The translations under genes and the position numbers were made by a program. The notes beneath the pieces are model-generated. The model made no database searches. It was not told the origin of the DNA and saw nothing but the letters and a program-made list of their open reading frames with translations. Below, piece by piece: positions 2,106 to 58,696 of a stretch of 64,000 nt of DNA (positions are counted from its first letter, which is position 1; the number at the start of each line of letters is the position of its first letter). This DNA comes from a virus (Duplodnaviria; Caudoviricetes): positions 1-64,000 of the IMG/VR virus record IMGVR_UViG_3300012953_000012; one strand, written 5' to 3'.

Positions 2106-2540
2106 ATGGCCAAACTGACCCGACAGGGAGCACGCAATCTGACTGCTACCCTCGACCGCATCGCTTCCGCAGTACAGGAAAACCCTGCACTGCTCGGCAT
2201 TGACATCAAAATCGCAAAGGACTTCGCGTACCGTTGTGATCTCATCTCGGACGCTGTTGAGCGTACCGCTGTCACCAACTTTCCGAAGCAGGCTGACATC
2301 AACAGTGCTGTTCCCAGTGCAGGCGGCGAGTACGACACCGCGAAGCCTGGCATCGAGAAGGAAATCGGCGCTGAGGTCAAGGGTCCCATCTATGAGGAAG
2401 ACCCCTCGGACGATCAGGACATCAAGGGCCACTTCACCCAGGCTGACTTTCATCAGTTGACCGAACTGGCCGAGAAGTTGAAGACCGCCGCCCGCAACGG
2501 CACGGTCGTCAGCGACCACGGATTCAACCTCACCAAGTAG
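2106..2540 (+). CDS. Hypothetical head-module protein (144 aa)
   Basis: GGAGA RBS then ATG 2106; contains KQAD and KTAA motifs; first gene of the protease/scaffold operon. Confidence 0.8.
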   Translation: MAKLTRQGARNLTATLDRIASAVQENPALLGIDIKIAKDFAYRCDLISDAVERTAVTNFPKQADINSAVPSAGGEYDTAKPGIEKEIGAEVKGPIYEEDPSDDQDIKGHFTQADFHQLTELAEKLKTAARNGTVVSDHGFNLTK

Positions 2541-2548
2541 GAGGCACC

Positions 2549-3124
2549 GTGCGTCGGTTTGCCGAAAACTACGTCAACTACCAAGAGCGGGCCACCGAGT
2601 TTTCTGTCGGAGACGTCGTGGTGCCGTTTGGCCTGTGGGATTCCCAGAGCGGTCGTGTCACGGCTGTGTGGCCTGCTATTGGTATGGTGGATGTAGAGTT
2701 CCCATCCGGCAACGCACGCTTCCCCGTCGAGGAACTTCAGCGCATGGGCGCTGATGGACAGGCCGAACCGCCCAGAACGGACTCCGCTCCGGGCGGGGGT
2801 GGGTCTGTTTCTGTGCCGGGTGGTCCGTACCCAGACAAGAAGAAGGCGGCCAATCGTGTGGCGCGGGCGTTCGTCAAGCAGTCCCTCTACTGGGCGCAGA
2901 AGGACCGCCAGTACCGCATGACCGGTCCCGAGAGCGCAGCGGGGAACCCCAACTGTCCAAAGTGTCCTGAGATCCCGCTGAAGCGGGCGATCTACAAACG
3001 CCGGGACGGCTCCAGCGAACGCCTTCAAGGCTGCCCTGGCTGCATGTTCCTCATCAAGGACGCGGACATCGTGAACTTCGGCCCTATCAGTGCCGAGGAG
3101 ATCGAGATCGAGGGGCAGGACTGA
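2549..3124 (+). CDS. Hypothetical protein with SH3-like N-terminus and C-terminal CxxC...CxxC zinc finger
   Basis: GGAGG RBS then GTG. FSVGDVV...GRVTAVWPAIGMVDVEF beta-barrel pattern; CPKC...CPGC; NRVARAFVKQS motif. Stop overlaps the next ATG. Confidence 0.8.
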   Translation: MRRFAENYVNYQERATEFSVGDVVVPFGLWDSQSGRVTAVWPAIGMVDVEFPSGNARFPVEELQRMGADGQAEPPRTDSAPGGGGSVSVPGGPYPDKKKAANRVARAFVKQSLYWAQKDRQYRMTGPESAAGNPNCPKCPEIPLKRAIYKRRDGSSERLQGCPGCMFLIKDADIVNFGPISAEEIEIEGQD

Positions 3125-4563
3125 TGGCGTTCCTCAAACGTGCCAATGCTATGGTCGTCCACCCCCGCATCTCTGGACGCGGTTGGGGCGGCATCCGCAA
3201 AACGGCTTCGGCAGGCTCCTCCCGGAACCTGACCGACCAGGCGCGGGAAATCCTCGGAGGATCACTGTCCTCCGACGACTACCTGGTCACGCACTGCACC
3301 ATCGTGGCGTCTGTAGACACCGACAAGGCCCCCAACGTGAAGTTGGGCAACGTCAAGGTCGGCACCCAGACGGTCAACAGACAGTGGGACGACTACCTGA
3401 TCAAGCCCTCGTCCTCCCAGTTTGTGAACAACAACGGCGACTCGTGGAGCCGCCCGGTGCTGAGGATGGCGTACCCGACCTTTATTGGGGCGCACAACTT
3501 CCGTGAGCACGTCCAGATCGAGGACCAGTCGAAGGGTCGGATCATCGACGCCTGTGCTCGTGACATCGGTGATTCCCTCTATGTGGACATCCTGGTTGCC
3601 ACGAACAAGAAGCACGCGGCGCTCGTCCAGGACATCCAGTCAGGCAAGATGGCGACCCTCTCCATGGGTTGCACAACTGACTTCACGACTTGCTCTAAGT
3701 GCGGTCACTTCGCTGTGGACGAGACCCAGTTGTGTGATCACATCAAGTACGCGAAACTCAACACCTTCATGGACGATTCCGGCCAGAAGCGTGTGATCGC
3801 AGAACTCTGTGGACACCAGTCCTACAACGAGAACCCGGACGCCCCTGGTGGGGTCAGGTTCATCGAGGCTTCCTGGGTCGCGGTTCCTGCGTTCCCCGGT
3901 GCCGTGATGCGGAACATCCTTGATCCCAGCGCGGCGTCCGATGACCAGGTTCGCAAAGTGCTCGCCTCCCCTCCCCCTCAGTGGTCAGACCACGCGGTCG
4001 CAAAGGCCGCGTCCATGTCGGCCCTTGCCTTCGACTTCGGTGGTGGCGGGGATGATGAGGACGACGCCCCTGCAAAGGACGAGAAGCCGTCGCCCCCGTT
4101 TCAGGGGATCGAAGATGCGGTGTACGAAGCCCTCAAGGTCCGGGTCAAGGAGCGCCTGGAGCGTGATCTCGCCCAGAAGGCTGTTGAGGATTCTGAGCCG
4201 GAACCTGATGGCACAATGGAGCCGAACGACTCCATCATCAAGGAAGGTCGAGCGCACTCGACTTCAGTCAAAGCACTTGTTCGTGTAGCCTCCTCCGAGG
4301 TCGCTCTTGTAGACGGTATTGCTTCCGTTGACGCCGCACATGGTGTCAAGGTTGCACGCCACCTCTACAGGGTCGCCCTGGCAGCGGGCGTCCCCACCGA
4401 ACACCCTTCTCTTGACCGTTACCTGTTTGCCTGTAAGAAGGCGGCGGGCCGGGATCTGAGTACTGCCGAAATCCGGGTTGTTGTCCGGGTCGGCACCCTG
4501 TTGGCCCAATGGGCTGACAATAACAACCCCAAACCCCACTATCCTATGAGGAGACTGCCATGA
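3124..4563 (+). CDS. Prohead (capsid maturation) serine protease, HK97/S78-like, with zinc-binding insert
   Basis: GAHNFREH (His), TLSMGC (catalytic Ser context) and FIEASWVAVPAF (matches the E-x-S-x-V-x-x-P-A signature of caudoviral prohead proteases). CSKC...CDH insert. Sits upstream of scaffold and MCP. Confidence 0.8.
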   Translation: MAFLKRANAMVVHPRISGRGWGGIRKTASAGSSRNLTDQAREILGGSLSSDDYLVTHCTIVASVDTDKAPNVKLGNVKVGTQTVNRQWDDYLIKPSSSQFVNNNGDSWSRPVLRMAYPTFIGAHNFREHVQIEDQSKGRIIDACARDIGDSLYVDILVATNKKHAALVQDIQSGKMATLSMGCTTDFTTCSKCGHFAVDETQLCDHIKYAKLNTFMDDSGQKRVIAELCGHQSYNENPDAPGGVRFIEASWVAVPAFPGAVMRNILDPSAASDDQVRKVLASPPPQWSDHAVAKAASMSALAFDFGGGGDDEDDAPAKDEKPSPPFQGIEDAVYEALKVRVKERLERDLAQKAVEDSEPEPDGTMEPNDSIIKEGRAHSTSVKALVRVASSEVALVDGIASVDAAHGVKVARHLYRVALAAGVPTEHPSLDRYLFACKKAAGRDLSTAEIRVVVRVGTLLAQWADNNNPKPHYPMRRLP

Positions 4564-6074
4564 GCCGTCAACGAATGACTTGGACAGACGCTGGGGTGTC
4601 TCGGCACGCCTCCGAGCACCCTGCAACCCCTGACGAGGGACCCGCTTCCCCCGCTCACAAGGCCCAGCCCGGCCCCGACGCCTACAAGAGTGGAGACACT
4701 TCTTCCTGGGCTGAGGACGTGCATCCTGGCCCCTACGAGAACGGTGAGCATCCTGCCACCCCCGACGAGGGACCTGCCAGCCCTGCCTACAAGGCTGCCG
4801 CCCTGGAGCGCAAGGCTGCAAAGTGCATCCGCCTCGCTACCGCCATGCTCGGTGAGGGCGCTACCGTCGCCGCCATCGAGAACCAGGCCCTGGAACTGAT
4901 GGACCTTCCTGACCGTTCGATCAAGGCCAGCCTCTCCCGGCTCGCTGAGGACGCCGACGAAGCCATCGACGATGACGACGCCGCCGAAGCCGAGGCCGAT
5001 CTCGCTGAGGAAGGCAAGAAGAAGGCTTCTGTCTCCGACCGCATCGCTCGCCTTGAGCGCGTGCTTGTCAAGTTGGCTGAGTCCGAAGACCCTGAAGGTG
5101 ACGGCGACGACTCCGAGTCCGAGGACCCCGAGGGTGATGACGACGACGACGGCAGCGAAGACCCCGGCGAAGACGAGGACATGAAGAAGTCCGCGTCCGA
5201 CGACGACGACGACGAGGACGACGAATCCATGCAGAAGAAGTCGGCCCTTGAGCGCCGCATGGACCGCATCGAGCGCGTCCTGCATCGCCTGGCTGCGGGC
5301 AAGGACGACGGTGAGTCGAAGGGCGACCAGTCCAAGACCCACATCGACTACGCCAACGCGAAGGACGGCGACAAGGAGACTGGCCACGGCGAGTCTGCTG
5401 GTGACCAGTCGAAGTCCCACGAGGACTACGAAGGCAAGAAGGCTTCCGACGACGACGACGAGTCCATGGATGACGAAGAGTCGAAGAAGAAGGCTGGCTG
5501 GGAGCCGGGTCACCGTGCCGAAGGCGGCTGGGACCCCGGTCACATGGAGTCCATGAGCGACGACGAGTCCATGCTGGAAGAGATGATGCTGGAAGAGATG
5601 CTTGCCGAGGAAAGCATGGATCAGAATGATCCCGAGGCTTTCTACGGTGATGATCCTTCCGGTGACGGTGTTCCTGAGATCATCGAGGCCGAAGGCGTCG
5701 TTGAGTCCATGATGGACCCCATGGGCCTGGACGACGAGATCGTGGAGGAGGATGACATGATGATCCTCGCTTCCCTTTTCGGCAAGGAAGCCGACCTCAA
5801 GGACGAGGACAAGAAGGAGAAGGAAGACCACGAGAAGGGTGCTGTCGCTGACGACAAGGACCACATCAAGAAGTTGGAGAAGGACGAGGCCGAAGACGCA
5901 AAGGACCTGGAGAAGGACGAGGAGTCGAAGAAGAAGGCTTCCCTCCGTCCCCAGCCGAAGCGGGCCAGCACCGGGGCGAAGACCCTGGGTGGTGTGTCGA
6001 AGGAAGCGGCTTCTGAGGTCGGTGATCTCAGCAAGTTGTGGGATTCGGCTCCTGACGTGTCTCGCTTCTTCTAA
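4560..6074 (+). CDS. Capsid scaffold-like acidic protein with internal repeats
   Basis: Extremely D/E-rich, coiled-coil segments (RIARLERVL, RMDRIERVL), lies between protease and capsid genes; repeated KKAS/KEA motifs. Confidence 0.7.
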   Translation: MSRQRMTWTDAGVSRHASEHPATPDEGPASPAHKAQPGPDAYKSGDTSSWAEDVHPGPYENGEHPATPDEGPASPAYKAAALERKAAKCIRLATAMLGEGATVAAIENQALELMDLPDRSIKASLSRLAEDADEAIDDDDAAEAEADLAEEGKKKASVSDRIARLERVLVKLAESEDPEGDGDDSESEDPEGDDDDDGSEDPGEDEDMKKSASDDDDDEDDESMQKKSALERRMDRIERVLHRLAAGKDDGESKGDQSKTHIDYANAKDGDKETGHGESAGDQSKSHEDYEGKKASDDDDESMDDEESKKKAGWEPGHRAEGGWDPGHMESMSDDESMLEEMMLEEMLAEESMDQNDPEAFYGDDPSGDGVPEIIEAEGVVESMMDPMGLDDEIVEEDDMMILASLFGKEADLKDEDKKEKEDHEKGAVADDKDHIKKLEKDEAEDAKDLEKDEESKKKASLRPQPKRASTGAKTLGGVSKEAASEVGDLSKLWDSAPDVSRFF

Positions 6075-6095
6075 GGAAGTACGGCCAACAGGCCA

Positions 6096-6131: not shown

Positions 6132-6186
6132 GCTCGTTCCGGTCCTGACTTTGCATCACAGGGGTCAGACTTTTCGCCCTGAGTTT

Positions 6187-6314: not shown

Positions 6315-6926
6315 ATGGCTTTGCTTGGACAGGCGAGTGGTGGATGGACTGAAAGTTCCTCGGCCCTGCGTCTTTTGCACGTTGGGATTCGGAACACGGT
6401 CGGAATCCTCACCACCGATGCTTTCACCCAGACCAACCCCCCCGACGCGGCGACGTTCACGACCAGCACCAGTGCTGGCATGGACACCGCAACCCTCGGA
6501 GTCCTCAGCGGCTCTGTGGCGTTCACCCGTGGCGATGCCGCTGGTGGTTCCAACGAGATCGGCGGCCCCGGTGCTGTTGCTCCCGGAACCGCTGGAGTCG
6601 TCGAACTGGGCGTCTTCATCAACACCGCAGTCGGAAACGCCTACGAGAACACCCCCGGCCCCGCAAGTGGCAAGGGTCCGTACATGTCCGGCCAGGGCAC
6701 CTACGCGAACAGCCTCTATGAGACCAGCAACGCTGCTGGAGCCGTCACCTACACGACTGGCGATTCTCTGGCTGCCTCGATCAACGGCTACCTGATCTCG
6801 TCCAGCGCGACCTCCGGGTCGGCCAACGCTGACTACTTCTGTGGTGCTACCGCAGTGCTCATGGGCATTCTCAAGATGCCTGCTGACGCTGTGCAGCCCG
6901 AAATCGTCTACGACCAGCGTATCTGA
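6315..6926 (+). CDS. Capsid decoration/cement protein (putative)
   Basis: 203 aa, G/A/T-rich beta protein directly upstream of the MCP; GGAGA RBS. Confidence 0.6.
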   Translation: MALLGQASGGWTESSSALRLLHVGIRNTVGILTTDAFTQTNPPDAATFTTSTSAGMDTATLGVLSGSVAFTRGDAAGGSNEIGGPGAVAPGTAGVVELGVFINTAVGNAYENTPGPASGKGPYMSGQGTYANSLYETSNAAGAVTYTTGDSLAASINGYLISSSATSGSANADYFCGATAVLMGILKMPADAVQPEIVYDQRI

Positions 6927-6960: not shown

Positions 6961-7833
6961 ATGTCTGTGAACAACAGCGTAAAGGCGAAGTTGATCAGCG
7001 AGTACATCGGCACTGCTGCCGGTCGTGCGAAGTTGGCTGCTTCAATGACCCAACCCCTGCGACTCCGTCGCGATTACATGGCCGTAGGCCGAAAGACATT
7101 TCTCGTGGAGCAGTTGCCTGACGGCGCTCTCCCGATTTATGACAAGGATGCGGACGTCACCGCATACGTCGTTGGTGAGGAAGGTGAGAACATCATCGCC
7201 GTCACCAAGCCTCGTCGTGTGATCTTCCCGCTCTTTGAGATCGCGTCGAACCCCGAGATCCCGCTCACGCAGATCAAGGAACGTCGCTTCGACCTCATTG
7301 AGCGTGCTCAGGATCTTGCTCGCGCACAGATCCAGGCAGCGGAAGACGAGCGTGTCTTCGCCGTCCTCGATGCCATCGCCACCAACGGCTTCGACAGCGT
7401 GGGAGCCGTCAACGCGGACATCCCCGTCGTCGCTCCCCTCAGTGGTGATGTCCTGGCCGACGCATTCAGCCTGATCGAACGTCATGACCTGCGAGTTGCT
7501 CGCGTGTTCATGAACGCTCGCGACTACGCTGACCTGCGGAAGTTTGGACGCGACATCCTGGACATCGAGACCCAGCGTGACCTGCTCAAGACTGGTCTGA
7601 TGGCTACCCTTTGGGGCGCTCAGATCATCGTCAGCCGCCTGGTCCCTGTCGGAACCGTCTACGTCTGCTGCGAGCCGGAAATGTTTGGTCGGATGCCTGT
7701 CCGTACCGAACTGACCGTCCTCAGCGCCGACGATCCGAAGGCCCGCACCATCGGTTTCTCATGCTTTGAGAACCTGGGTATCGGCGCGTTCAACCCTCGC
7801 GGTCTGGCCCGTCTGACCATCACTCGTCCGTAG
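6961..7833 (+). CDS. Major capsid protein (HK97 fold)
   Basis: AGGAG RBS then ATG 6961, 290 aa. Spine-helix pattern FEIASNPEIPLTQIKERRFDLIERAQDLARAQIQAAEDERVF; strongly biased codons; followed by a strong terminator; canonical protease-scaffold-decoration-MCP order. Confidence 0.85.
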   Translation: MSVNNSVKAKLISEYIGTAAGRAKLAASMTQPLRLRRDYMAVGRKTFLVEQLPDGALPIYDKDADVTAYVVGEEGENIIAVTKPRRVIFPLFEIASNPEIPLTQIKERRFDLIERAQDLARAQIQAAEDERVFAVLDAIATNGFDSVGAVNADIPVVAPLSGDVLADAFSLIERHDLRVARVFMNARDYADLRKFGRDILDIETQRDLLKTGLMATLWGAQIIVSRLVPVGTVYVCCEPEMFGRMPVRTELTVLSADDPKARTIGFSCFENLGIGAFNPRGLARLTITRP

Positions 7834-7946: not shown

Positions 7947-8263
7947 GCCGCTGCCCCTCCCCCCCACTCCGCAGCGGCACCCTGAGACCCTTCGACCCGC
8001 GAGCAGTCTGCCGTAGTAGCGCCGTGAGACGAAGGTGGGACCGCCGGGCCGATCCCCCGGCGGTCCCTCTCTCGGGGGCGTCATGTCTCGTGAGCACTGC
8101 CCGCTGTTGTTGTCTGCAACCATGAGAGGGGTGTTCCACTCGCCTTACTGAACCGGTCCATACGACCTCCTTCAATAAGCAAGACGGCGCAAGCCTTCGT
8201 CGGCGGACAACCAGGACGAAAAAACTTTGAGCCCGTCTGTCAGTACCCCTTCGATGGGTACTG
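7947..8263 (+). ncRNA. Structured intergenic RNA / long leader candidate
   Basis: Three hairpins (7947-7978, 8037-8067, 8241-8263) in a ~340-nt region with no convincing ORF, downstream of a sigma70-like promoter. Confidence 0.3.
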
Positions 8264-8283
8264 TCACGGGTGTAGGAGTTGCC

Positions 8284-8889
8284 GTGCGAATCGCTGTCTC
8301 AGGAACCATTGGAGCAGGGAAGTCCACCCTGTGTGCCCACCTTTCAACCGCCCTCAAGTACGAGGTGTTTGAAGAACCTGTGGCAGACAACCCGTACCTG
8401 GAAGACTTCTACGCCGACCCGCACCGCTGGGCCTTTGACGCCCAGGTGTTCATGATCTCGCATCGGTTCCGGCGGCAGATGGAGGCTGTTCATGCAGCCG
8501 AGAACAAAGGCTTCCTGCTGGACCGCTGCTTCCACGAGGACCGGGTGTTCGCAGAGGTCAACCACGAGATCGGCCACATCAGTGACCGTGATTGGAGCAC
8601 CTACCTGCACTTGTACGAGTCCTTCTGCCGGATCGTCCCACCCCCGGAGGTCATCATCTACCTCCAGACTGACCCCACGGTCGCCATGGGCCGCATTCAA
8701 AGCCGGGGTCGGGGATCAGAGCAGGAGATCCCCATGGACTACATGGTTCGGCTCCATGCGGCCTACGAACGCTGGGCTGAGGACCTGGCAGCGAGGACAC
8801 GGGTGCTGACGGTTCCGTGGAATGACTACAACACCCCAGGTTGGCGTGAGGTCTACGAGCAGGTGCTGTTGACTACTCCAGCGTCTTGA
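8284..8889 (+). CDS. Deoxynucleoside kinase (dNK/dGK family)
   Basis: AGGAG RBS then GTG 8284. P-loop GTIGAGKST; EEPVADNPYLEDFY, RWAF, DRCFHED and RIQSRGR lid motifs. Confidence 0.92.
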   Translation: MRIAVSGTIGAGKSTLCAHLSTALKYEVFEEPVADNPYLEDFYADPHRWAFDAQVFMISHRFRRQMEAVHAAENKGFLLDRCFHEDRVFAEVNHEIGHISDRDWSTYLHLYESFCRIVPPPEVIIYLQTDPTVAMGRIQSRGRGSEQEIPMDYMVRLHAAYERWAEDLAARTRVLTVPWNDYNTPGWREVYEQVLLTTPAS

Positions 8890-18635: not shown

Positions 18636-19553
18636 ATGACTTACGCGAAAGGCCAGTTTCAGTCCTATCGGGCTATCACCAAGATCCATCTCGGGGCGAT
18701 CTCCGACAATCTCTCGGAGGGTGAGGAGATCGAATACGACGGGCATGTGCTGAAGCGCGGAAGCGATGAACACTCTCTCCACAGCCTCCGCGCCGCCATC
18801 AAGGTGGGCTGGCTCGTGCCGGTCGAGGACACCAGTAGCATCTACGTCCCCCGGCCTGCTGGGGTCAAGGTCCACAAGGCCGATGGGACGGACGACAGCG
18901 AGATTGACCTGGACACCGTGTTTGAAACCGACGTGAACATGGGCACCCTCGACGAGGTTCGCCCTGACGCCGCCCCGAAGACCCACAAGGCCACGGCTGC
19001 CGGTCAGCAGAACTCCAGCGAAGGCAAGGTGGTGTCCCGAATCAAGACCTCCGCGAAGTCGGACACGGTCCAGATCGGTAAGGACGACCGCCAGGTGGTT
19101 GCCTCCCTGGACAACAAAAGCGGGATCGAGGTGGAGCGCGTGGCTGTGGCCACGGGCGATGTCCAGGAAGCCATCGGCGGGGAAGACCTCACCGAACTTC
19201 TCCCAGACGCGGAGTCCGCAGGAATCCCGAAGCCCGGCCCTTCCGGTGAGGGCGCTGGTGACCAGTCCGAGAGCCGTGCCCGCAGCGCAGCAGGGTCCAC
19301 TGTTGGCGGTGCTGATGATGGTGTCGTCGTGGCCCGCATCGGGGAGATTGCCCCGGAGCCTGACGGTCTGACCTTCATCCAGCAGTTCATCCCCGGCTTT
19401 GAGTGGGACATGGGCATCCAGTGGGCGAAGCGTGTCAAGATCGCCTGCGAGAAGTACGGCGACATCCCGGCGGTGCTTGACTACATCAACTCCGTCGAGA
19501 CCGAGACAGTCAAGAAGCACCTCGCCAAACGCCTCGCTGAGTCGAAGCGGTAG
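18636..19553 (+). CDS. Hypothetical protein (305 aa)
   Basis: GGAGG RBS then ATG 18636; coding-like bias. Confidence 0.8.
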   Translation: MTYAKGQFQSYRAITKIHLGAISDNLSEGEEIEYDGHVLKRGSDEHSLHSLRAAIKVGWLVPVEDTSSIYVPRPAGVKVHKADGTDDSEIDLDTVFETDVNMGTLDEVRPDAAPKTHKATAAGQQNSSEGKVVSRIKTSAKSDTVQIGKDDRQVVASLDNKSGIEVERVAVATGDVQEAIGGEDLTELLPDAESAGIPKPGPSGEGAGDQSESRARSAAGSTVGGADDGVVVARIGEIAPEPDGLTFIQQFIPGFEWDMGIQWAKRVKIACEKYGDIPAVLDYINSVETETVKKHLAKRLAESKR

Positions 19554-19562
19554 ACAGCCTAT
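19548..19562 (+). promoter_or_regulatory. Putative late promoter motif CGGT-N7-CTAT overlapping the upstream stop
   Basis: cgg tag acagc ctat; upstream of 19592. Confidence 0.6.
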
Positions 19563-21001: not shown

Positions 21002-21016
21002 CGGTAGTGCTTCTAT
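21002..21016 (+). promoter_or_regulatory. Putative late promoter motif CGGT-N7-CTAT
   Basis: cggt agtgctt ctat, GGGTA 11 nt downstream; upstream of 21050. Confidence 0.65.
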
Positions 21017-43800: not shown

Positions 43801-44478
43801 AGCCCCGGCGACCGCTACCAGATCGCAGTCTACTTCCGTAGCAACGCGCCCCAGACGGTTGGTGTCATGGGCGGGTTCCCGGCGACTTCCCCGTTGCCGG
43901 ACACCCTGAACCTTGAGCCGTTGGTCATGTCCCGCAACCTGTGGACGAACACCACCTCCGTGGGATCACTGGACCTGGCGTTCCCCTACAGCAACCCGTC
44001 TGACCAGATCGCCGTCAACGCTGACCAGCAAACCGGCATCAACCCTCCGTTCCCTGGCGAGTGGGCTCTCATGTCCCTGGCCAAGATCAGCGTCGGTGAC
44101 TTCGACGCCGAGACGGGCCTGCTCAACCTGCATCAGATGGTCCCAGTTGACCCCAACTCGGACTTCTCCTTCTCCAGCCGTGCGTGGGATCACGAGTTCC
44201 GTGGGCACTACCGGATTGCCGATGTGAACGCCTATCGGCCTACGGCGATGGCCCAGCCGCTCTCTGGGGTCGCGACCCACAAGGTCTTCTTCCCCTTCCT
44301 GGCTCAGACCTCCGCAGACAACGTCTACTTCCGCAAGGGAGAGGTCGTGCTCGTGGTAGTCAGTCGATACGCACTTCTTGATGGAGACAACGTGGTTCGG
44401 TTCACGGATAGCGGCACAGACACCTGTGCTGCGGTGTACCGGACACGCGGGCTACTCCTTTTGGCTTCGGAGCGATAA
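40888..44478 (+). CDS. Large baseplate-like structural protein (1196 aa), paralog of 52791
   Basis: YQSGKPVLDAELN, DFVFLEV, RVQIQY, DGYSYAIP, RPDQRFHD...DLR motifs shared with 52791..58148. Confidence 0.8.
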   Translation: MAIRDKYFPGSTVSRYLPPGEHSWSEAIYQSGKPVLDAELNLSQEVGKEIRRLIQHHETPSGWLRGPVPPSLTDFSFGNPAGGYPADSFYMVNRTAIVAQMPVTVAYTENTEPQNLIQLSPATLDNGTPANVKRTDFVFLEVFRALVSPSPHASGSITVLTFPTAGSITINGVALTPAGGPRGVGIGADNYDNTLVSAAAIAADIRDAINDSSNSWAGVVTAEIDISVAEQVNIKATDAFAGAAGNAIGFIESTGGAEFTLDPLVGNLTGGVDTPNKPTQATIYRNGNILAPAGVNLPDRIADPTIGTESTKRVQIQYNIRKTNQTEAVNFQVTNGFIGANWIAATTVPSTADSEVRAQATQVAPVGRYRFVPADGVTVLAYIEVTGVGAIALGDTIDVNGVTLTAANPAVNPDEFDPTGAPGAIATSIVTAITASVGTVAASASGSLIAIVPAVSGDNVTLSSVLTTSTSVITAVNSAVSYQTVDNGLYISGDGTQKAATDLGTVDGYSYAIPMCFVFRRNDASTTGGFDPANNTNGALAHDHAPFNNTHLTGGATAIPASTSDRPDQRFHDVIVSGDVLDLRRQVSPGGVDLKAELESQMTALLDGSMHTWAIDTEDITELGNSSGDVSSVYLVCNEIGDQDNVNGETIGKWDHIRRRFADQPVVERRIFPITSDAPSGTNPGLFMDPTRAGWEAGQVININLGQLDASGLGDWVPTASPVVVTNQWPAGTTITNVLRVVHDDGNYALAIDQNVETDLITGIGTDHVQITLAPNNAQANGGVNGDPGYDIVPTVAGTSARRIFVELEISYPAGVGISATPDEIIGGSPTVTPYHGSALEYDTSKRPTDFEDLQPPAYRPGYREVMMEYICNDGLTVPVSGSPITEEVVSGSGIDLIMSRRFYGIKGGAPALMSVTDIGGGLGAVPIDDAATTWGNSARKIVLSGAGVAPGVQSKCSVEYFAQDPIPDFSSPGDRYQIAVYFRSNAPQTVGVMGGFPATSPLPDTLNLEPLVMSRNLWTNTTSVGSLDLAFPYSNPSDQIAVNADQQTGINPPFPGEWALMSLAKISVGDFDAETGLLNLHQMVPVDPNSDFSFSSRAWDHEFRGHYRIADVNAYRPTAMAQPLSGVATHKVFFPFLAQTSADNVYFRKGEVVLVVVSRYALLDGDNVVRFTDSGTDTCAAVYRTRGLLLLASER

Positions 44479-51380: not shown

Positions 51381-52556
51381 ATGAGAATCTTCACCGACAT
51401 CGCCAGCCATGACACGACAGGGGTCGCTCCGGGCGGGCGTATCGTTCGTACCGACTCCACCCCCGTGCAAGGGGAGGAGACCCCGATCAACGGTCAGTGG
51501 GTCTTCCCCGTCCCCGAAGGCGCAGCACTGACGGTGGATTCGACCTCCTTCTGGTTCCCCCAGGAGGACCTCAACTCGATCCCCTCACGAACGGCATCCG
51601 AGTTGCTGATCCGCTACCCGATGTACGACCACATCATCTACAACTTCTACCTCGACAACGGGGACACGGACGCCTTCGATCTGACCAACCCCACGCCGAT
51701 GCCAACAGTTGCGACCACTACCCCGCCGATGCCTACCATCCTGGGGGCCAGCACGGTGCCGCGCTGCCAGTTGGGAGGCCCTACAGGCGCTCCCTCAGTC
51801 GGCATGGTCCCCAACTCCCTGGGAGTCCTGCCTCGGACGGAGGGCCGCCCCAACAACCTTTTCGGCTCGCTCGTCACGGCGATGATCGATCTGTGGTACT
51901 TCAACCCCTGCTACATCGAGGTCAATGATCCGGTCACCCTCAACCCCGGTGACATTGTATCCCTCGACGCCCTCCCTCTTGAGGCGATAGCAGGTGTTCG
52001 CGTCTCTGGCGACGACAACTTCTCTCTGAGCAGCGGAACCGCTGCGGGCATCGCGGCGGACATCGTGGCTGCGATCAACGACCCGCTCAACTCCTTCTCG
52101 ACACTGGTGCTGGCGACGATTGACCCCACGGTCCCGAGCCGCATCCAACTGCGTCCCGTGCCTCCGACCAACACCCAGATCACTGTCGCCGCTGCTGGTG
52201 GGGTCACCGGGTTCACTCTCGTCGAGTCCCATCCTGGCACCGACGAAGTGATGATGTGGTGGAAGATCAACCGCATGACGGTGACCGAGGACCAGGGCAA
52301 CACTCAGGCTACGACCCCGATTGGCAACACCCCAGCCATCAAGAGCCTTGTCGAGATCAATGAGGAAGACCCCGACCTGCTGGTTTACGCCAGCGTGGAT
52401 GACGGAAACTCCTGGTATCGCATCCCCTACCTTGAGCCGATTGACTTGATCAACGCGGGCACCGAGTTGCGGGTAGCATTCATCAACCTCGGCACTGACA
52501 AGATCTATGTCGAGGGCTTCTGCGTCCTGTTCCCTGACCTCTTGCCTCCGCTGTAG
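51381..52556 (+). CDS. Putative virion structural protein (391 aa)
   Basis: Shares the IAADIxxAINDxxNS module with the 40888 protein. Confidence 0.75.
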   Translation: MRIFTDIASHDTTGVAPGGRIVRTDSTPVQGEETPINGQWVFPVPEGAALTVDSTSFWFPQEDLNSIPSRTASELLIRYPMYDHIIYNFYLDNGDTDAFDLTNPTPMPTVATTTPPMPTILGASTVPRCQLGGPTGAPSVGMVPNSLGVLPRTEGRPNNLFGSLVTAMIDLWYFNPCYIEVNDPVTLNPGDIVSLDALPLEAIAGVRVSGDDNFSLSSGTAAGIAADIVAAINDPLNSFSTLVLATIDPTVPSRIQLRPVPPTNTQITVAAAGGVTGFTLVESHPGTDEVMMWWKINRMTVTEDQGNTQATTPIGNTPAIKSLVEINEEDPDLLVYASVDDGNSWYRIPYLEPIDLINAGTELRVAFINLGTDKIYVEGFCVLFPDLLPPL

Positions 52557-52558
52557 CC

Positions 52559-52723
52559 ATGCACCACATCTCCATCCACGACCTGAAAGGCGATGAGCGC
52601 CGCCGCTGGGCAGAGGCCCGCAAGGCCGCCTATCGCAAGGTATTGCGGGATCGGGGGGCGTCTGACCAGCAGCGCAGGGAAGCCCGAGCCAAGTTGAACG
52701 CCATCGACCGCCCTTCCCGGTAG
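52559..52723 (+). CDS. Small basic helical protein (54 aa), absent from the ORF track
   Basis: ATG 2 nt after the previous stop; MHHISIHDLKGDERRRWAEARKAAYRK... Confidence 0.55.
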   Translation: MHHISIHDLKGDERRRWAEARKAAYRKVLRDRGASDQQRREARAKLNAIDRPSR

Positions 52724-52732
52724 TCCGGCTAT
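52718..52732 (+). promoter_or_regulatory. Putative late promoter motif CGGT-N7-CTAT overlapping the upstream stop
   Basis: cgg tag tccgg ctat, GGGTA 11 nt downstream; upstream of 52791. Confidence 0.65.
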
Positions 52733-52790: not shown

Positions 52791-55700
52791 ATGGCCCAAG
52801 ACTTCGGAAACGGCGTGAGCCGCACACTGTCGGCCATCCAGCGTCAGTTTCAGACGGTGGTTTGGCAGGCATCAAAGCCCCCGCTCGACTCCGAACTGAA
52901 CCTGATGTCGCAGATGGAGATGAACCGCCTGGCTGAGGTGGTGCGTTCCCAGATGCACTCAGGGTTCCTGTTGGACCCGATGAACGCGGATGCGGACTTC
53001 GTGACCGGCAAGGACTGGTCAAACTGGTTCAAGTTGGGGCGTCCCTCCACCAACGAGGTTGCGCCCATGATGTGGGCCAACGTCAATGGTTGGCTCGTGC
53101 CTGTCACGGGAACTGGGGTGAGCGACGGTGATCCCAGCAACCGGGTCAACCTGTTCCAACCCCCGGCGACCGAAGCGCGGGTGGACTTTGTGTTCCTGGA
53201 GGTCTGGCAGGCCCAGATCGCTCCGAACCCCAGCACGGCAGGCAAGCCCTCAGCCAGCACCATCTACAAGTACGGCAACACTCAGTTTGGCGGGACCAAC
53301 TTCCCGGACGAGATGAAAGACCCCACCATGGGGTTTGAGACCACTGAGCGTGTCCAGATTCAGTACCGCATCCGCACCTACGGCTCGGGAACCGGACTCG
53401 GGGACGCTGTGGACCTCGCACAGTACCCGGACGGCCTCGATGATCCCAACGTGCTCGCACAAGGGGCGATGGCCTCTCCTGTGGTTGGCTACGTCTGGTC
53501 CAACATGGGTGACGAGTTGGGCGACCGTGGACTCTGGCGTTCCGGGACCGGCGACAGCAACAGCCGGACAGACCTCGGCACAGTGGACGGCTACGTCTAC
53601 GCCATTCCGATCTGTGCAGTCTTCCGCCGCAACAGCAGCGCCTTCGTTGCTCGCACTGCTTCGGGGAATGCCAACCAGAACGGCGGCCTCGACAGAAACC
53701 CAGTTTCCGGGACCATCACGGATCCCCTGCAAGCCACCCGGACGTTCACTCCGGTCACCCTGACCAACGCCCTGGCGGCAGACACGACAGGCGTGATCTC
53801 AGTCACCGGGCTGCCCAACTCGGGCCTCGACAACGTGAACATCAACTGGTCCTCCATGGCTCTGGAGATCGGTGGCGAGATCATGGTCATCCAGGCAGTC
53901 AACGCCGCGACGGGCCAGATCCAGATCGCCTCGACCACAGACACCACGAACCCGTGGACCGGCGCACTCCTCACGCCCACGCCAGGTCGGGGGCGCTTCG
54001 GCACCCAGGCCGCGCCTCATGTGGCAGGCAGCCAGATTCACTTCTTCAACTTCCGCCCCGACGCACGCTTCTCAGACGAAATCGCAGCGAGCGACATCCT
54101 GGATCTCCGACGCGGGGTCACAGGTGGCGAGTGGTCTTACGAAGACCTCCTGAAGCACAACCTCGGTCGAGTCCTTGATGGCTCCCTCAAGTCCTCCTAC
54201 AAGCAGGGCAGTGGGACGAACACACAAGGCACTGAGATCATCGAAGTGGACTCCTACATCGGCAAGTACGCCTCCCCCATCCCGAACCAGACGGAGCACC
54301 TGGACGGCTTCGACAGCATCCGTGAGGTCTTCTCGGACAGTGCGGTCGTCCAGAACGATGTCAGCATCTTGCTGAACGTCGTCGGAAACACCCCCACGCT
54401 CTCAACGAACAGTTGGGGCGCTGGCGCACCCTTCACGGTGAGCGGGAGCGTCCCGGCAGGCACGGGATCATCGTGGGAGAACGGTTCGATCATCGAGATC
54501 GACATGGGCAGGGCACGCGAAACCTCCGACACCGAAGCCCCCTTCATGCGCTTCGTGGCCCCTCAGGAGTACTGGCTGTCTCGTGACGAGATGATCGTGC
54601 TCGGGGGAGCACTTCACGGAAGCCAGTCTCCCTTCCTCATGCGCTTCGTTGGTGAGGATGCGGCAACCGGAGCCACGGAACCCTATGCGTGGGCACTTCC
54701 CTCCCCTGCCTATGGGTCGGCGGCGGTGAACCACCCCGGCCCCATGTTCCCGATGGTGGATGGGGGCTTTGAGTACCCTTACATCGTGCTCGGGGGTCTG
54801 GCCAACGGCACAACCCTCCCGGCTGATTCGGCTGCTGTGGTCACGAGCGCCCTACCTGCGGCGGTGGTTGCTCTCGGCATCCCGGCTCTCGACTTCGACT
54901 CCTCTGCCCCTGGTAGCAACTGGTACAACACCAGTGTCGATGATCTCAGCACTGAGGGGATCACGAACCTGCTTCTGCATGGCACCCGGAACCTCTACGA
55001 CCTGCTCACCAACGGCGGGCGTGATCCGTCCGGGGCGTCATCTGAGTTGTACATCACCATGGCCGACTCTACGAACCCAGGCAACAACGGTTGCTTCCGG
55101 GTCATTGGAGCCGGAACCGCAGGCTACACCTGGCACAACGCGCCGGACGGGCAGAGCATTGTCGTCGAGCGTGTGGGAGTCCTCCCAGACGCGATGGTCC
55201 CCACTGCCCAGGTGACGGTGAAGTTCCGCACGCAGTACACGAACACGGCGGACACTGGCATGGCCATTGTCCTCACGGACCTCGCAGGCACTCTGGGAGG
55301 CGCGGCGAACCCATGGGGCGCTGCACCATCCATCTCCGACTCGTACAACGGAGACATGGTGCTCGACACCAGCCTCCTCTACGGCCCTTCACGAGGGGCG
55401 ATGGCTCGGGTTGCTACGCGCCTCGACCGCTTCGCGGCGGTCGCTCCTGCCAGCACGGTCCTTCGTGAAGCCCCTGAGAATATCGACCCCGACAGCGTGG
55501 AGTTCCGCACCCGGACAGGCGTGCCGCAGGACGAGTACTACTATCCAGCGCAGCCCGTCCCCACCTGGAACCGTCTGCCCAGCCTGGGAGCACATGCCCC
55601 CAACGCACCCGCCTACGGTGAGGGTCGCTACAACTTTGAGTCCCGTCGTGAAGCAGAACTCTTCGCAGACGAGGGTTCCAAGTCGGTCATCTTCCGCCCC

Positions 55701-58148
55701 TTCCAACAGTTGGACATGTCCTGGGCGTTGAAGGTCACGGGGACCGATCAGTTGCCTTCCAACTACGACGCTTCCGGCGGCAGCGGCCCTGTGATGGGTG
55801 GCGCTGGTCTGTTCCAGTGGGGGTCCATTATCGGACTGCCTCCTGAGTACATGCCTCGCTTTGGCCGCCAGGACATCCCTGTGCGGGCCACGGCGGGAAC
55901 GAGCGGCCCTTACATCGGCATCAACCACCTGTTTGGAGACTCCGAGACCGCCACCGACGTGGTCCGGGATGTCATCGGTGGAGCCAACACCACGGCCCCT
56001 GCGGTGACCAACTCGATCCTGCGGATCAGCACTGCCCTGGGCATCGACTACGGCGGTTGGAGCGTGGCCGACTCATCCTTCCAAGGACGGCTCTACGAGG
56101 ACGTGAACGCACGGTCTTCGGACATCAACAAACCTCTCCGTGGCATCCAGTTGCCTCCTTACGTCGGCATCGCTCGGGTCTACGGCGTCTACGAGGCTGC
56201 GGACTACGCAGCCAACGGTGGCGCGTGGGAGGACGAAGGCTTCACCTTGAAGACCTCGGGATCCATCGGGACCAACCTGCTCCGCACGGATGCGGACAAG
56301 CAGACGATGTACATCATCAAGGACGGTGCAGCCGATGTCCTCGCAGGACACGACGCGCATACCTACCTGGTCCCTGAGGAAGCCATCGACATCCAGAAGA
56401 TCGCCGGATGGACCTCGGCCTCCACCTTCGCGACCTACGACTACGTCGTCGAGGTCGCCGTCTTCGCGTTCGCAGAAGGCTTCATCAACAAGAACAACTA
56501 CGTCCTGCTCCGCTCGGACGCTGCTGCTGGCCTGGCAGCCAACCTGCTTTCAGGCGGGCGCATGATCATCCCAGCAGCGATGCAGTCCTCTGTGTCGAGC
56601 GGAACAGACGGCTACTCGGCCTTCACCCGGACGGTGTACCAGGGTGACCCCTACATGACCCGCAACGGCCCGACCTTGCAGACGGCGGACTACCAGAACC
56701 GCTATGGCAAGGTCCCCGTGACGGATGCCAACGCGGTCAACGCACCGCTCCAGCAGTACGACACGGACAATGGCCAGATCCCTGAGATCCCCAACGCCCG
56801 CGCTCTGGAAGTGCTGGCCACGGTGGATTTCTGGACCACGCTGGGCACCGGCAAGATGGGCGGTCCTGTCTACACGAGCACCCCCACTGATCCCGGCTAC
56901 CTGACCGCTTCCGGGACTCGCCTCCCGGAGTCTGCGACCCAGAACCCGTGGCAGCCCCACGCCCGAGCATTCTCGACCCCCCAGCCCGCCAGTGCAGGCT
57001 ACGCCTCGATGGGTGTGGTCATGGACAACCGCGCGGTGATGGTTGACCAGGCTGTCGTGATCCGGCGCGGCGACAGTGTGGCTACCTTCGCCTACGCCTC
57101 GTTTACGGGAGCAACCGTCCAGGAAGACATGTCTCTTCTGGCGGCCCTCATCAACTCGTCCGACATCGCGTGGGCGGAAATCGGGGTCTGGGCAGCCGCC
57201 GCAGGACCGACCTGCCGCATCTACGCTCGGATGCCCGGCAAGGAGGGAAGCGAGACCGTCGTGTCGCTGACTCCCGCGACGGGCACCCCGACTGTCATGA
57301 CCGGGCTCCGGTTGACCGTCAACACCACCTACGGTGCGTTGCCAGTCACAGGGTCGGTCCAGACTGTTGCAGCCCTTACCGGCTACACAGAGGTCCCTGC
57401 CAACGCCAAGCAGACGCACAGTGCCCCGACCCCAATGCGCCTCACCGGCATGACTGACCGACTCCCGCTCGGCATCCTGGTGAACGATTCTGACTTCATT
57501 GGCGAAGACCCGCTCCGCAAGGGAATGGCCTACGAGGTCCGCAGCGGTGGTGGTGACCAGTCCACGCAGGCTGTGACCACCTTCTCGGCAGAAGGCCAGG
57601 AGAACACCCGCCTCAGTGGTCCGGGTGGGATCATGGGCATGGCTGATGGGGCAATCCTTCAATACACCGCCTACAACGCTGCCTCAGCCCCCGATGGGGT
57701 CAAGCAGTTCCGCCTCTACCGTGGTGGTGGCTCGGCCTACGTCGTGTCGCCCCAAGCCGCTGGCGGCCCTGTGGACATCATCTCGGGCGGTTTCAGTGAG
57801 GGTGATGATCCTGTGCTGAAAGGTGCTGCTCTGGTCGGTCGGGCCTACCTGGTCCGCAACGGCTACGAGGAAGCGTTCACCGGCAACGTCACTCGGTCCT
57901 ACGGGGACGAGGTACAGATGGTCATTGTGACCAACGCGGTGTACGGCGAGGGTCTCGACTGCGACAGCGGCTACACCCTCGATGGGATCATCAGCCCCAC
58001 CGACTACGGCAAGGGCTACGCGGCATCTGACCGATACCGTCTGGAAGGCAAGCCCCTGGTCAAGAGCCGGGCTGCTCTCCCTGACCCCAACATCCCGCTG
58101 GCTCCGTACCCGCCGGAAGACCCCGCAGACGACGATCCGTGCCCGTGA
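52791..58148 (+). CDS. Large baseplate-like structural protein (1785 aa), paralog of 40888
   Basis: WQASKPPLDSELN, DFVFLEV, RVQIQY, DGYVYAIP, RPDARFSD...DLR. Confidence 0.8.
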   Translation: MAQDFGNGVSRTLSAIQRQFQTVVWQASKPPLDSELNLMSQMEMNRLAEVVRSQMHSGFLLDPMNADADFVTGKDWSNWFKLGRPSTNEVAPMMWANVNGWLVPVTGTGVSDGDPSNRVNLFQPPATEARVDFVFLEVWQAQIAPNPSTAGKPSASTIYKYGNTQFGGTNFPDEMKDPTMGFETTERVQIQYRIRTYGSGTGLGDAVDLAQYPDGLDDPNVLAQGAMASPVVGYVWSNMGDELGDRGLWRSGTGDSNSRTDLGTVDGYVYAIPICAVFRRNSSAFVARTASGNANQNGGLDRNPVSGTITDPLQATRTFTPVTLTNALAADTTGVISVTGLPNSGLDNVNINWSSMALEIGGEIMVIQAVNAATGQIQIASTTDTTNPWTGALLTPTPGRGRFGTQAAPHVAGSQIHFFNFRPDARFSDEIAASDILDLRRGVTGGEWSYEDLLKHNLGRVLDGSLKSSYKQGSGTNTQGTEIIEVDSYIGKYASPIPNQTEHLDGFDSIREVFSDSAVVQNDVSILLNVVGNTPTLSTNSWGAGAPFTVSGSVPAGTGSSWENGSIIEIDMGRARETSDTEAPFMRFVAPQEYWLSRDEMIVLGGALHGSQSPFLMRFVGEDAATGATEPYAWALPSPAYGSAAVNHPGPMFPMVDGGFEYPYIVLGGLANGTTLPADSAAVVTSALPAAVVALGIPALDFDSSAPGSNWYNTSVDDLSTEGITNLLLHGTRNLYDLLTNGGRDPSGASSELYITMADSTNPGNNGCFRVIGAGTAGYTWHNAPDGQSIVVERVGVLPDAMVPTAQVTVKFRTQYTNTADTGMAIVLTDLAGTLGGAANPWGAAPSISDSYNGDMVLDTSLLYGPSRGAMARVATRLDRFAAVAPASTVLREAPENIDPDSVEFRTRTGVPQDEYYYPAQPVPTWNRLPSLGAHAPNAPAYGEGRYNFESRREAELFADEGSKSVIFRPFQQLDMSWALKVTGTDQLPSNYDASGGSGPVMGGAGLFQWGSIIGLPPEYMPRFGRQDIPVRATAGTSGPYIGINHLFGDSETATDVVRDVIGGANTTAPAVTNSILRISTALGIDYGGWSVADSSFQGRLYEDVNARSSDINKPLRGIQLPPYVGIARVYGVYEAADYAANGGAWEDEGFTLKTSGSIGTNLLRTDADKQTMYIIKDGAADVLAGHDAHTYLVPEEAIDIQKIAGWTSASTFATYDYVVEVAVFAFAEGFINKNNYVLLRSDAAAGLAANLLSGGRMIIPAAMQSSVSSGTDGYSAFTRTVYQGDPYMTRNGPTLQTADYQNRYGKVPVTDANAVNAPLQQYDTDNGQIPEIPNARALEVLATVDFWTTLGTGKMGGPVYTSTPTDPGYLTASGTRLPESATQNPWQPHARAFSTPQPASAGYASMGVVMDNRAVMVDQAVVIRRGDSVATFAYASFTGATVQEDMSLLAALINSSDIAWAEIGVWAAAAGPTCRIYARMPGKEGSETVVSLTPATGTPTVMTGLRLTVNTTYGALPVTGSVQTVAALTGYTEVPANAKQTHSAPTPMRLTGMTDRLPLGILVNDSDFIGEDPLRKGMAYEVRSGGGDQSTQAVTTFSAEGQENTRLSGPGGIMGMADGAILQYTAYNAASAPDGVKQFRLYRGGGSAYVVSPQAAGGPVDIISGGFSEGDDPVLKGAALVGRAYLVRNGYEEAFTGNVTRSYGDEVQMVIVTNAVYGEGLDCDSGYTLDGIISPTDYGKGYAASDRYRLEGKPLVKSRAALPDPNIPLAPYPPEDPADDDPCP

Positions 58149-58162
58149 TCGAGGAGTGAGCC

Positions 58163-58696
58163 TTGACCCCACTACAATCACTTGAGCATCTGACAGACAA
58201 GGTTTGGGACTCCTGGTCCGGCGAACGCCTCTCTGGCGGCGTGGGGGAGTTCGACTCCTTCCACGCTCTCGCGTATGACCTCGGGATGGCGATGAACCTC
58301 TCCGACGACATCCCCCTGAGCAACGCTGGCGCGAAGATCTCGCGTTCCGTCCAGTCGTTGGAGAAGCAGACCCGCTCGTGGCGCATGGCTGTGAACCTCT
58401 CTCAAGAGGGGCACGAGATGGACATCGGCAGGTGGGTTGGCGATCTGGAGAAGACGAAGGGCAAGATCATCGCCATCCAGACCGCTCTGGAGAGAGCGGA
58501 GCGGAAGATGCCTTCTGCTCGGGCATCCGGCGAGTACATGAGTTCCGGCCTGGATGCCGACGACTTCAAGAAGGCGTATCTGGCAGGAGAGCACACCAAG
58601 AAGTTGATCGACGAGGCCGTCAAGGCGGCCAGGAAGGTGCCGCGCACCGCCTCGGTGAGCCGCGTTGCCTTTCGCTACGCCTCCAAGAGCATGTGA
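58163..58696 (+). CDS. Helical hypothetical protein with C-terminal RTAS/RVAFRY motifs
   Basis: GAGGAG RBS then TTG; coiled-coil character. Confidence 0.75.
   Translation: MTPLQSLEHLTDKVWDSWSGERLSGGVGEFDSFHALAYDLGMAMNLSDDIPLSNAGAKISRSVQSLEKQTRSWRMAVNLSQEGHEMDIGRWVGDLEKTKGKIIAIQTALERAERKMPSARASGEYMSSGLDADDFKKAYLAGEHTKKLIDEAVKAARKVPRTASVSRVAFRYASKSM

Follow-up and report, generated by a model that had tools for sequence, protein, structure and literature searches.

We analysed the first 64,000 nucleotides (the window) of a tailed-phage record from IMG/VR (IMGVR_UViG_3300012953_000012; Duplodnaviria, Caudoviricetes) and found that otherwise unrelated proteins share a short peptide tag, one half of which also marks the prohead protease and the scaffold candidate of the same phage. 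The two halves, R/K-x-A-S and an R-V-A-x-R motif, often form a single tag, [KR]-x-A-S-[AP]-x-R-V-A-x-R-[YFWH]-[LA]. The motifs are shown here to be real, conserved, biased toward protein ends, separable and clade-restricted, and to be concentrated in head-module and effector-like proteins. As to what they do, we infer from sequence, giving it about an even chance, that R/K-x-A-S is a prohead-protease site of the Ala-Ser type and that the RVA half is a helix docking its carrier to the head; that reading takes in cleavage and the scissile bond as well as the receptor and packaging.

The window opens a 205,564-bp virus record of about 62% GC (guanine plus cytosine) with a CheckV completeness of 46%. 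By similarity of the major capsid protein (MCP), the nearest records are LR745208.1 (86%), Tunturiibacter phage Tunturi_5 (50%), Bacillus phage G (gp27, 41%) and the Myrna/I3-type mycobacteriophages (30%), and the window phage is a huge phage related to phage G, Tunturi_5 and the Myrna-type mycobacteriophages. LR745208.1 is the complete, unannotated 485-kb genome of an uncultured phage (55% GC), and Tunturi_5 is cultured. A megablast search of 10 kb against the phage collection gave no match. Genes were called on the whole record with a codon log-odds caller, which returned 206 genes at 92% coverage; it was taken in place of an earlier caller based on a threshold for third-position GC (GC3), which had reached 27% coverage on LR745208. 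LR745208 proved more distant than the MCP similarity had implied, with homologs for only 65 of the 206 genes, so that it was of limited use in the ortholog tests. Four related contigs were fetched in full, and the motif table covers G001 (297 kb, 59.5% GC), G002 (113 kb, 63.6% GC) and G003 (148 kb, 42% GC). Searches of Pfam, PHROGs and NCBIfam assigned no function to most of the tag carriers.

The RVA half is far more frequent than composition would predict. RVA.R[YF] occurs three times in the proteins of the window against 0.04 expected from shuffles, and four times in the whole record against 0.10-0.11. The looser RV[AVM].[RAL][YF] is found seven times in the window (0.26 expected), and the composite [KR].A[SA]..[RK]V[AVM] six times in the record (0.15-0.18 expected), in six scattered proteins: 21050, 37402 and 58163 within the window, and 85514, 143216 and 181534 outside it (genes of the record are named by their start coordinate). 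Among the relatives, RVA.R[YF] occurs 20 times in G001 (0.15 expected), seven times in G003 (0.03) and once in G002 (0.06), and [AP]S..[RK]VA occurs 23, six and five times in the same three contigs (0.70, 0.21 and 0.19 expected). The excess of RVA.R[YF] is 40- to 200-fold in the window record, G001 and G003, which range from 42% to 62% GC. A pattern search at the DNA level gave 23 matches in G001 (five with the reversed-pattern control) and seven in G003 (control two). The same search of the complete genomes returned background in Tunturi_5 (two against two), phage G (one against one) and Myrna (one against none), and the RVA tag is therefore confined to the clade of the window phage, where it is carried by dozens of unrelated proteins. 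Because the codons that encode the tag vary synonymously, selection acts on the peptide and not on a DNA repeat.

A logo built from 70 copies reads [RKP]-[RK..]-[AP]-S-[AP]-x-R-V-A-x-R-[YFHW]-[LA], with Ser at position -3 in 69%. The tag sits at N-termini, at C-termini and at domain junctions, with up to five copies in one large protein, and orthologs retain its location. Of 107 core hits, 47 fall within 25 residues of a protein end, where 18.9% would be expected (p = 3e-9). Since some carriers end three to seven residues past the motif and others begin only a few residues ahead of it, the tag cannot be part of a larger shared domain. The carriers have no BLASTP similarity to one another and so are not paralogs by this measure. 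Position is kept between 85514 and G001_235373 (at the C-terminus), between 143216 and G001_170287 and between 181534 and G002_26177, and more generally in orthologs whose overall identity is 26-58%. N-terminal copies differ from the rest. P-S stands in 11 of 16 of them, compared with four of 32 copies elsewhere, where A-S is found in 18 (Fisher p = 0.0017); the full [KR]xAS element is present in two of the 16 and in 13 of the 32 (p = 0.057).

Several proteins of the window show this anatomy (all tags, sites and head-module genes given here with window coordinates are on the + strand). Protein 21050 begins with a variant, LVARYL (21071-21088), followed by KQAD, and its G003 ortholog (G003_28765, 26% identity) begins MKVSAIRVAYRY. 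It has an internal RVAARY at residue 221 (21710-21727), found in the same position in G001_30571 (residue 400), and a composite tag, RVAS-TL-RVVSAY, at residues 398-409 (22241-22276). Protein 22824, which has a SWIM domain, carries three tags: RVAALF near its N-terminus, preceded by APSAT (22851-22868); RVMARF between a helical hairpin and the SWIM domain (23139-23156), which is KVAARF in the G001 ortholog; and RVAARY-GKTS immediately before the stop codon (23907-23936), a motif in which many distant homologs also end. In an AlphaFold2 (AF2) model made from a 34-sequence alignment (predicted local distance difference test, pLDDT, 72), each of the three tags forms a short helix standing on its own, bounded by linkers of low confidence and apart from the two confidently modelled cores. 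When this model was searched with Foldseek, BFVD gave matches only to uncharacterised SWIM-domain proteins of other jumbo phages and PDB gave no significant match; a profile search against PDB sequences also found nothing. In 43 distant relatives of 22824 and their 21050-like neighbours, the motif is again seen at extreme N- or C-termini, and the pieces of split genes begin with it. The 58163 protein ends in a full composite tag, RTAS-VS-RVAFRY (58643-58678), then ASKSM and the stop codon, and the tag is kept in the G005 ortholog. The 37402 protein, which has a weak WGR-domain match, contains RFASTRKVA (37663-37689), which is not conserved in the G001 ortholog and is a degenerate or, probably, chance copy.

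The cut-site half needed to be defined more narrowly. A preliminary description of this DNA had defined it as [KR].A[SADG], and the strings that it listed are all present in the genes named. The pattern carries little information, and in the window it is found 79 times against 57.6 expected (z = 3.0), an enrichment of about 1.3-1.4-fold. The excess lies with Ser in the fourth position: [KR].A followed by Ser occurs 63 times in the window phage's own genome against 37 expected, 139 against 57 in G001, 44 against about 25 in G003 and 64 against 24 in G002. With Asp (44 against 45) or Gly (47 against 52) the count is at chance, and with Ala or Leu there is a mild excess of helix type. KQAD, KTAG, KKAG, KEAD and similar strings, about half of the examples first listed, are thus individually indistinguishable from chance; one of this group, KTAD of ORF1, is conserved in position. 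The specificity is for Arg (Lys less) in the first position, Ala in the third and Ser in the fourth: R.AS occurs 103 times in G001 against 33 expected, and no hydrophobic residue in the first position reaches z = 2. The excess of R/K-x-A-S persists after both tag families are removed (54 against about 38 in the own genome; 117 against about 56 in G001). The RVA class as first described, in turn, exceeds its shuffled frequency as detailed above, and the long fibre and baseplate proteins were correctly seen to lack such clusters (no RVA-type hit; R/K-x-A-S six times against 3.9 expected).

The second tag family just mentioned is a portable module of about 30 amino acids (aa), DR-x-x-LIRLA[SA]-x-LP-x-GS-x-ER-x-x-IL, which occurs N-terminally, internally and C-terminally on unrelated proteins and contains an R-L-A-S of its own. 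There are five copies in the record (including those in the genes at 146761-147261, 176038-176634 and 189641-191911, outside the window), eight in G001 and seven in G002; none was found in G003 or LR745208.

The strongest clusters of R/K-x-A-S lie in the head module, in the protease and the gene that follows it. By similarity and gene position, gene 3124 (3124-4563, 479 aa) is a prohead serine protease: it matches phrog_18299, "head maturation protease" (E 6e-13), is 41% identical to the annotated Tunturi_5 protease gp331 and 39% identical to phage G gp19, and in an atlas lead 49 of 100 hits fell in Peptidase_S77 clusters. No Pfam match was obtained at E 0.01, and a profile search against PDB sequences found nothing. 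The catalytic region spans approximately residues 27-294, and H129, S180 and E200 are invariant in 10 protease sequences. In one relative (L009:8093-10885) the gene is split by an intein of about 450 aa (Hint, Intein_splicing) exactly at the invariant LSMG-C junction, equivalent to window 3661-3672, and this insertion point supports S180 as the active-site serine. Three R/K-x-A-S sites are present where 0.50 would be expected, and all are kept in the relatives examined, down to 41% identity (an arrow marks the proposed cut). K-T-A↓S at residues 26-29 (3199-3210) is upstream of the catalytic domain and is [KR]xA[SA] in all relatives; K-A-A↓S at residues 294-297 (4003-4014) is just past that domain and is conserved as [KR]xA[S/N/K]; and R-V-A↓S at residues 387-390 (4282-4293) is within the C-terminal domain, where its conservation is less informative because the surrounding region is itself conserved.

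The acidic scaffold candidate (4560-6074, 504 aa) has six R/K-x-A-S sites, at nucleotides 4602, 5019, 5187, 5436, 5931 and 5958, against 0.64 expected (p = 5.5e-5). The last two form a C-terminal doublet, KKA↓SLRPQPKRA↓S, ahead of a tail ending in DVSRFF. Its orthologs have one to seven sites each (0.3-0.7 expected) at recurring positions, namely an N-terminal RxAS, a KKAS ahead of a coiled-coil segment and the C-terminal doublet before the tail. In the protease and scaffold orthologs the sites are conserved while the flanks diverge.

Upstream of the protease are two small genes restricted to the tag-using clade. The 2106 gene (2106-2540; this start is supported by orthologs) encodes a small helical protein with K-T-A-A near its C-terminus (2481-2492), which is K-A-A-S in three orthologs. 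The 2549 protein (2549-3124) consists of an N-terminal beta-rich domain, a Gly/Pro-rich linker, the sequence KKAAN-RVARAF (2840-2872) and a C-terminal region resembling a Cys4 zinc ribbon; all full-length orthologs have [RK]VAx[AS][FYW], and the copy stands at the domain start. Directly upstream of the head module, and three genes upstream of the protease, is open reading frame (ORF) 1 (1-1998), the 3' portion of a gene truncated where the contig begins, in the position of the Tunturi_5 "DNA ejection protein". A near-identical full-length homolog (L006:4697-8872, 1392 aa) is a multidomain protein with a PAP2 phosphatase and a eukaryotic-type topoisomerase IB catalytic core (Topoisom_I). The ORF1 site K-T-A-D (1939-1950) is K-x-A-[S/D/T/A] in orthologs and precedes by about 10 residues a conserved tail, YDF-x-PWG (1969-1995; whole feature 1939-1995).

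Downstream of the scaffold is the MCP (6961-7833, 290 aa), a match to phrog_2522 (E 8.5e-55); its ORF opens at 6841, and the true start is at residue 41. It is 83-99% identical across relatives whose protease is 41-88% identical and is the most conserved protein of the module. We rejected its internal RVARVF as a tag, since this lies in the folded core and is probably chance, and we did not use the N-arm motif GR-x-KLAA↓S as evidence because it is conserved inside a conserved region. Twelve loci keep the order 2106, 2549, protease, scaffold, MCP, and Tunturi_5 has the same layout. A 203-aa ORF between the scaffold and MCP genes (6315-6926) has no family match and was not called by the gene caller, its GC by codon position being atypical; the phage G capsid decoration gene gp26 occupies the equivalent spot.

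R/K-x-A-S extends beyond the clade that uses the RVA tag. In Tunturi_5, which has no RVA tag, K-x-A-S is clustered in gp328, the "DNA ejection protein" (five against 0.85 expected), in gp332 in the scaffold position (four against 0.54), in gp348 (seven against 0.95) and in gp350, a "DarB-like antirestriction protein" (five against 0.93). The remaining 28 proteins of that stretch have six together against about 5.5, and no clustering is seen in tail proteins. The phage G protease homolog gp19 has KVAS and KIAS past its catalytic domain, and Myrna gp97 ends in RTA↓SRRVAANDPVNDSLMFG. The annotation of Myrna gp97 (L114:8701-12336) is "tape measure", but a prohead-protease domain occupies residues 44-214 and the MCP gene follows directly; the protein has the appearance of a fusion of protease and scaffold.

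Where domains can be assigned, the carriers look like packaged effectors. In G001, ART-PolyVal occurs in two of them, lying between two tags in a protein of 1247 aa and combined with an N-terminal tag in one of 445 aa; a third, of 905 aa, has a nucleotidyltransferase domain of PolyA_pol type, and there is also a weak NUDIX match. In the window record, 85514 has HAD_SAK_1, a HAD domain found in RNA-repair proteins of the "Swiss Army Knife" kind. Polyvalent proteins, with several effector domains and ART-PolyVal, are found among the G001 carriers; within the window only the truncated ORF1 qualifies. Such proteins are predicted to be packaged in the capsid and injected, with T4 Alt, a packaged ADP-ribosyltransferase, as the tested prototype (PMC5512222).

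A promoter-like element provides a second connection with the head. GGTAG-N5-CTAT heads the operon of the 2106, 2549, protease and scaffold genes (2023-2036, + strand), with further window copies at 19549-19562, 21003-21016 and 52719-52732. It occurs 19 times in the record, and its reversed control does not occur. Besides the head operon and a fibre gene, it directly precedes five of the nine tagged genes (Fisher p = 1e-4), and two further tagged genes are second in units that it heads. There are 29 copies in G001 and 16 in G002, where the association with tagged genes is again found (p = 0.008); G003 has two, no more than its reversed control. From the types of carrier and from this element shared with the head operon, we infer that the tags may define the set of proteins packaged in the head, as the preliminary description had suggested.

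We propose the following mechanism. R/K-x-A-S would be the recognition site of the 3124 protease, and the cut would probably fall between Ala and Ser, a point that we propose by analogy with the sites of herpesvirus assemblin. Such cuts would break down the scaffold, trim the protease to either side of its catalytic domain and fall upstream of terminal peptides. Of the earlier suggestion that all KxA motifs are cut sites for this protease, only the narrower R/K-x-A-S is supported, by the conserved clusters in scaffold and protease and by those of Tunturi_5. The motif R-V-A-x-R-[Y/F/W/H]-[L/A] would form a short amphipathic helix on a flexible linker, by which the carrier attaches to some part of the head during assembly, so that unrelated enzymes are loaded into the capsid; candidate receptors are the MCP, the C-terminal domain of the protease, the 2106 protein and the 2549 protein. 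A docking role for RVAxR[YF] had also been suggested, and it agrees with the anatomy of the tag (isolated helices, disordered linkers, end bias and positions kept in orthologs), while the prediction of a complex gave no answer. In internal and C-terminal copies the cut site lies two residues upstream of the helix, so that cutting there would release the cargo or divide "polyvalent" proteins of several domains into pieces; N-terminal copies mostly have P-S instead of A-S. Three of the candidate receptors, namely 2549, 2106 and the C-terminal helical domain of the protease (approximately residues 330-479), occur in the tag-using genomes. The complete Tunturi_5, phage G and Myrna genomes have none of the three, the proteases of phage G and Tunturi_5 lacking that domain.

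Several points weigh against this proposal. The co-occurrence of those three with the tag amounts to a single clade-level split and so does not discriminate among the candidate receptors. Our literature search found no cleavage, packaging, binding or virion data for this lineage and no processing data for Tunturi_5 or phage G. Prediction of a complex between the protease (479 aa) and residues 138-177 of the 58163 protein scored 0.00, which speaks neither for nor against binding, and the AF2 model of the protease (10-sequence alignment) has a pLDDT of 46, which precludes a comparison of its fold with assemblin. Where an N-terminal tag has no cut site nearby it would not be removed, whereas the T4 capsid-targeting sequence is. 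Two positions ahead of Ala the residue is basic, and at herpesvirus sites it is hydrophobic; R/K-x-x-S is, moreover, also the consensus of basophilic kinases. About 10% of the G001 genes would be head cargo, which is a lot. The association of the promoter-like element with tagged genes is weak in G001, where the direct test is not significant and the unit-level counts are 12 of 30 against 49 of 241 (p = 0.017). Finally, the motif expectations come from shuffles of each protein that preserve composition only, and the gene calls from a simple in-house caller.

A more specific form of the docking proposal, which we put forward tentatively as one possibility, is that the RVA helix is a cargo-loading peptide binding the inner face of the HK97-fold MCP, as in encapsulins, and that the adjoining R/K-x-A-S lets the head protease release the cargo. 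The high conservation of the MCP is only suggestive as a hint of tag binding. If this is so, the clade would load dozens of enzymes for co-injection, among them ADP-ribosyltransferases, nucleotidyltransferases, RNA-repair enzymes and, by way of the second tag, sigma-like factors.

The helix could instead dock to a hub outside the capsid, either as an exosite signal that guides the protease to polyproteins or as a handle by which an assembly factor or chaperone, for example 2549 or 2106, takes hold of them, and the carriers would then not be packaged. A short linear motif on flexible linkers would fit a hub of any sort; tag use does go together with the presence of 2549, 2106 and the protease C-terminal domain, and 2549 itself has its conserved copy at the domain start. 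We nonetheless consider such a hub unlikely: the tag is coupled, at a fixed spacing of two residues, to the motif that marks scaffold and protease, its carriers are of the packaged-effector type, and the promoter-like element is common to carriers and head operon.

Less probable still is that the tag is the recognition or modification site of an enzyme, such as a basophilic Ser kinase acting on R-x-x-S or some other transferase, and serves as a regulatory mark. In favour of this, no flanking residue is more conserved than the Ser at -3, and positions -6 and -5 are held by Arg or Lys. The strict Ala before Ser, however, is foreign to kinase consensus sites. A Pkinase is encoded by LR745208, but none was found in the window record, G001, G002 or G003, four of the five tag-using records (these contigs being incomplete). 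The strongest accumulation of the motif is in the scaffold and around the catalytic domain of the protease, which are classical substrates of cleavage, and the change from A-S to P-S at N-termini also fits cutting better.

We attach very little probability to the idea that terminal tags are degrons, by which a Clp/Lon-type machine, or the prohead protease acting outside the head, would destroy proteins at a set time. Short N- or C-terminal motifs are typical of degrons, and phage G encodes ClpP and ClpX (PMC12484599); yet phage G lacks the tag, searches of the tag-using genomes, the complete 485-kb LR745208 among them, found no ClpP, and many copies are internal, at domain junctions. That the motifs have no function and reflect chance, composition, helix propensity or a cryptic shared domain is hardly credible, and is refuted for the RVA tag and R/K-x-A-S by the size of the RVA.R[YF] excess, the synonymous codon variety, the proteins that end or start right at the motif and the conservation of position among divergent orthologs, although it stands for the D and G variants, and the generic mild excess of [KR]xA[A/L] and the probable chance matches in the MCP and 37402 are of the same kind.

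Other features of the record are noted here as separate observations. Two non-structural genes lie within the structural region: a thymidylate kinase gene just downstream of the MCP gene (8227-8889) and an SNF2-family helicase (60209-61801), which follows the tagged 58163 gene at a distance of about 1.5 kb. Blocks of sequence, N-terminal or internal, are common to adjacent or nearby large structural genes (25720-26571 with 26571-30935; 40888-44478, 51381-52556 and 52791-58148), with 49% identity over 148 aa and 45-54% over shorter stretches, which suggests modular exchange among fibre or baseplate proteins. Outside the window, the genes at 64395-65036 and 154850-155584 of the record form a paralogous pair, 48% identical over about 235 aa, approximately 90 kb apart and on opposite strands.

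Among known systems, the proposal can be compared with the capsid-targeting sequence (CTS) of T4, which is carried by internal proteins and Alt and whose protease, gp21, cuts at L/I-x-E. In both cases a short peptide on unrelated proteins is joined to a motif that also marks the scaffold, in T4 the cut motif of the head protease and here the proposed one; an ADP-ribosyltransferase belongs to the T4 cargo and to the cargo predicted here, and a load-then-cut logic is proposed. The consensus is different, being R/K-x-A-S with RVAxR[YFW] in place of L/I-x-E, as is the lineage, which is phage G-like with an HK97-type MCP of 290 aa. Nor is the tag a strictly N-terminal leader: copies are N-terminal, C-terminal and internal, up to five per protein, and most of the N-terminal ones have no cut site. 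R/K-x-A-S is common to tags, scaffold and protease, and cleavage at it is a prediction.

The maturation (M) and release (R) sites of herpesvirus assemblin have the form (V/L/I)-x-A↓S, and cleavage at the M site releases the capsid-binding C-terminal tail of the scaffold. The sites described here have the same Ala-Ser core and flank the catalytic domain of the protease (residues 26 and 294). They also lie just upstream of short conserved C-terminal tails, as in the scaffold (DVSRFF), ORF1 (YDFxPWG), Myrna gp97 (ending DSLMFG) and tagged cargo; this likeness is one of position, and a binding role for the tails would follow by analogy. The residue two before Ala differs, being hydrophobic in herpesviruses (P3 V/L/I) and Arg or Lys here.

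The head proteases of other giant phages, phiKZ gp175 and SPN3US gp245, cut many head and ejection proteins at A/S/G-x-E (PMC10052503). Like the proposed system, they have many substrates that include ejection proteins, multiple motifs in propeptides, and self-cutting (PMC10052503). Their cut motif is different, the SPN3US propeptides are nearly all N-terminal, and no separate portable docking helix is described there. Encapsulin cargo-loading peptides, short terminal sequences through which unrelated enzymes attach to the inside of an HK97-fold shell, are the closest model for RVA-MCP docking; they have an unrelated consensus and are not coupled to a protease site, and MCP binding here is putative. 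The carriers also recall polyvalent proteins (Iyer et al. 2017, PMC5512222) and the Dar proteins of phage P1, in that large multidomain effectors (ART-PolyVal, nucleotidyltransferase, NUDIX, phosphatase, topoisomerase) are predicted to travel with the DNA, and the DarB-like protein of Tunturi_5 is rich in K-x-A-S. For polyvalent proteins, embedded metallopeptidases have been proposed and no linear sorting tag (PMC5512222), whereas here a shared linear tag stands at the junctions and the head protease is the proposed processor. In the literature searched we found no description of the tag or of a phage prohead specificity of the Ala-Ser type. Relative to the T4 CTS with gp21 and to phiKZ and SPN3US, the logic is alike; what is new is the consensus, the separable cut site and helix, the multiple copies at ends and junctions, and the Ala-Ser core.

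If the proposal is true, basic-x-Ala↓Ser would be a third independent rule for phage head proteases, beside L/I-x-E in T4 and A/S/G-x-E in phiKZ, and its echo of the herpesvirus Ala-Ser sites would bear on the shared ancestry of these proteases. The half of the prediction that concerns cleavage at K-x-A↓S is testable in the cultured Tunturi_5. The code would also supply a tag of 12 residues with which foreign proteins could be loaded into very large capsids. For the clade itself, the injected cargo of uncultured huge phages, up to about one-tenth of their genes, would be predictable from sequence, and the predicted cargo would be a set of candidate enzymes for host takeover and anti-defence.

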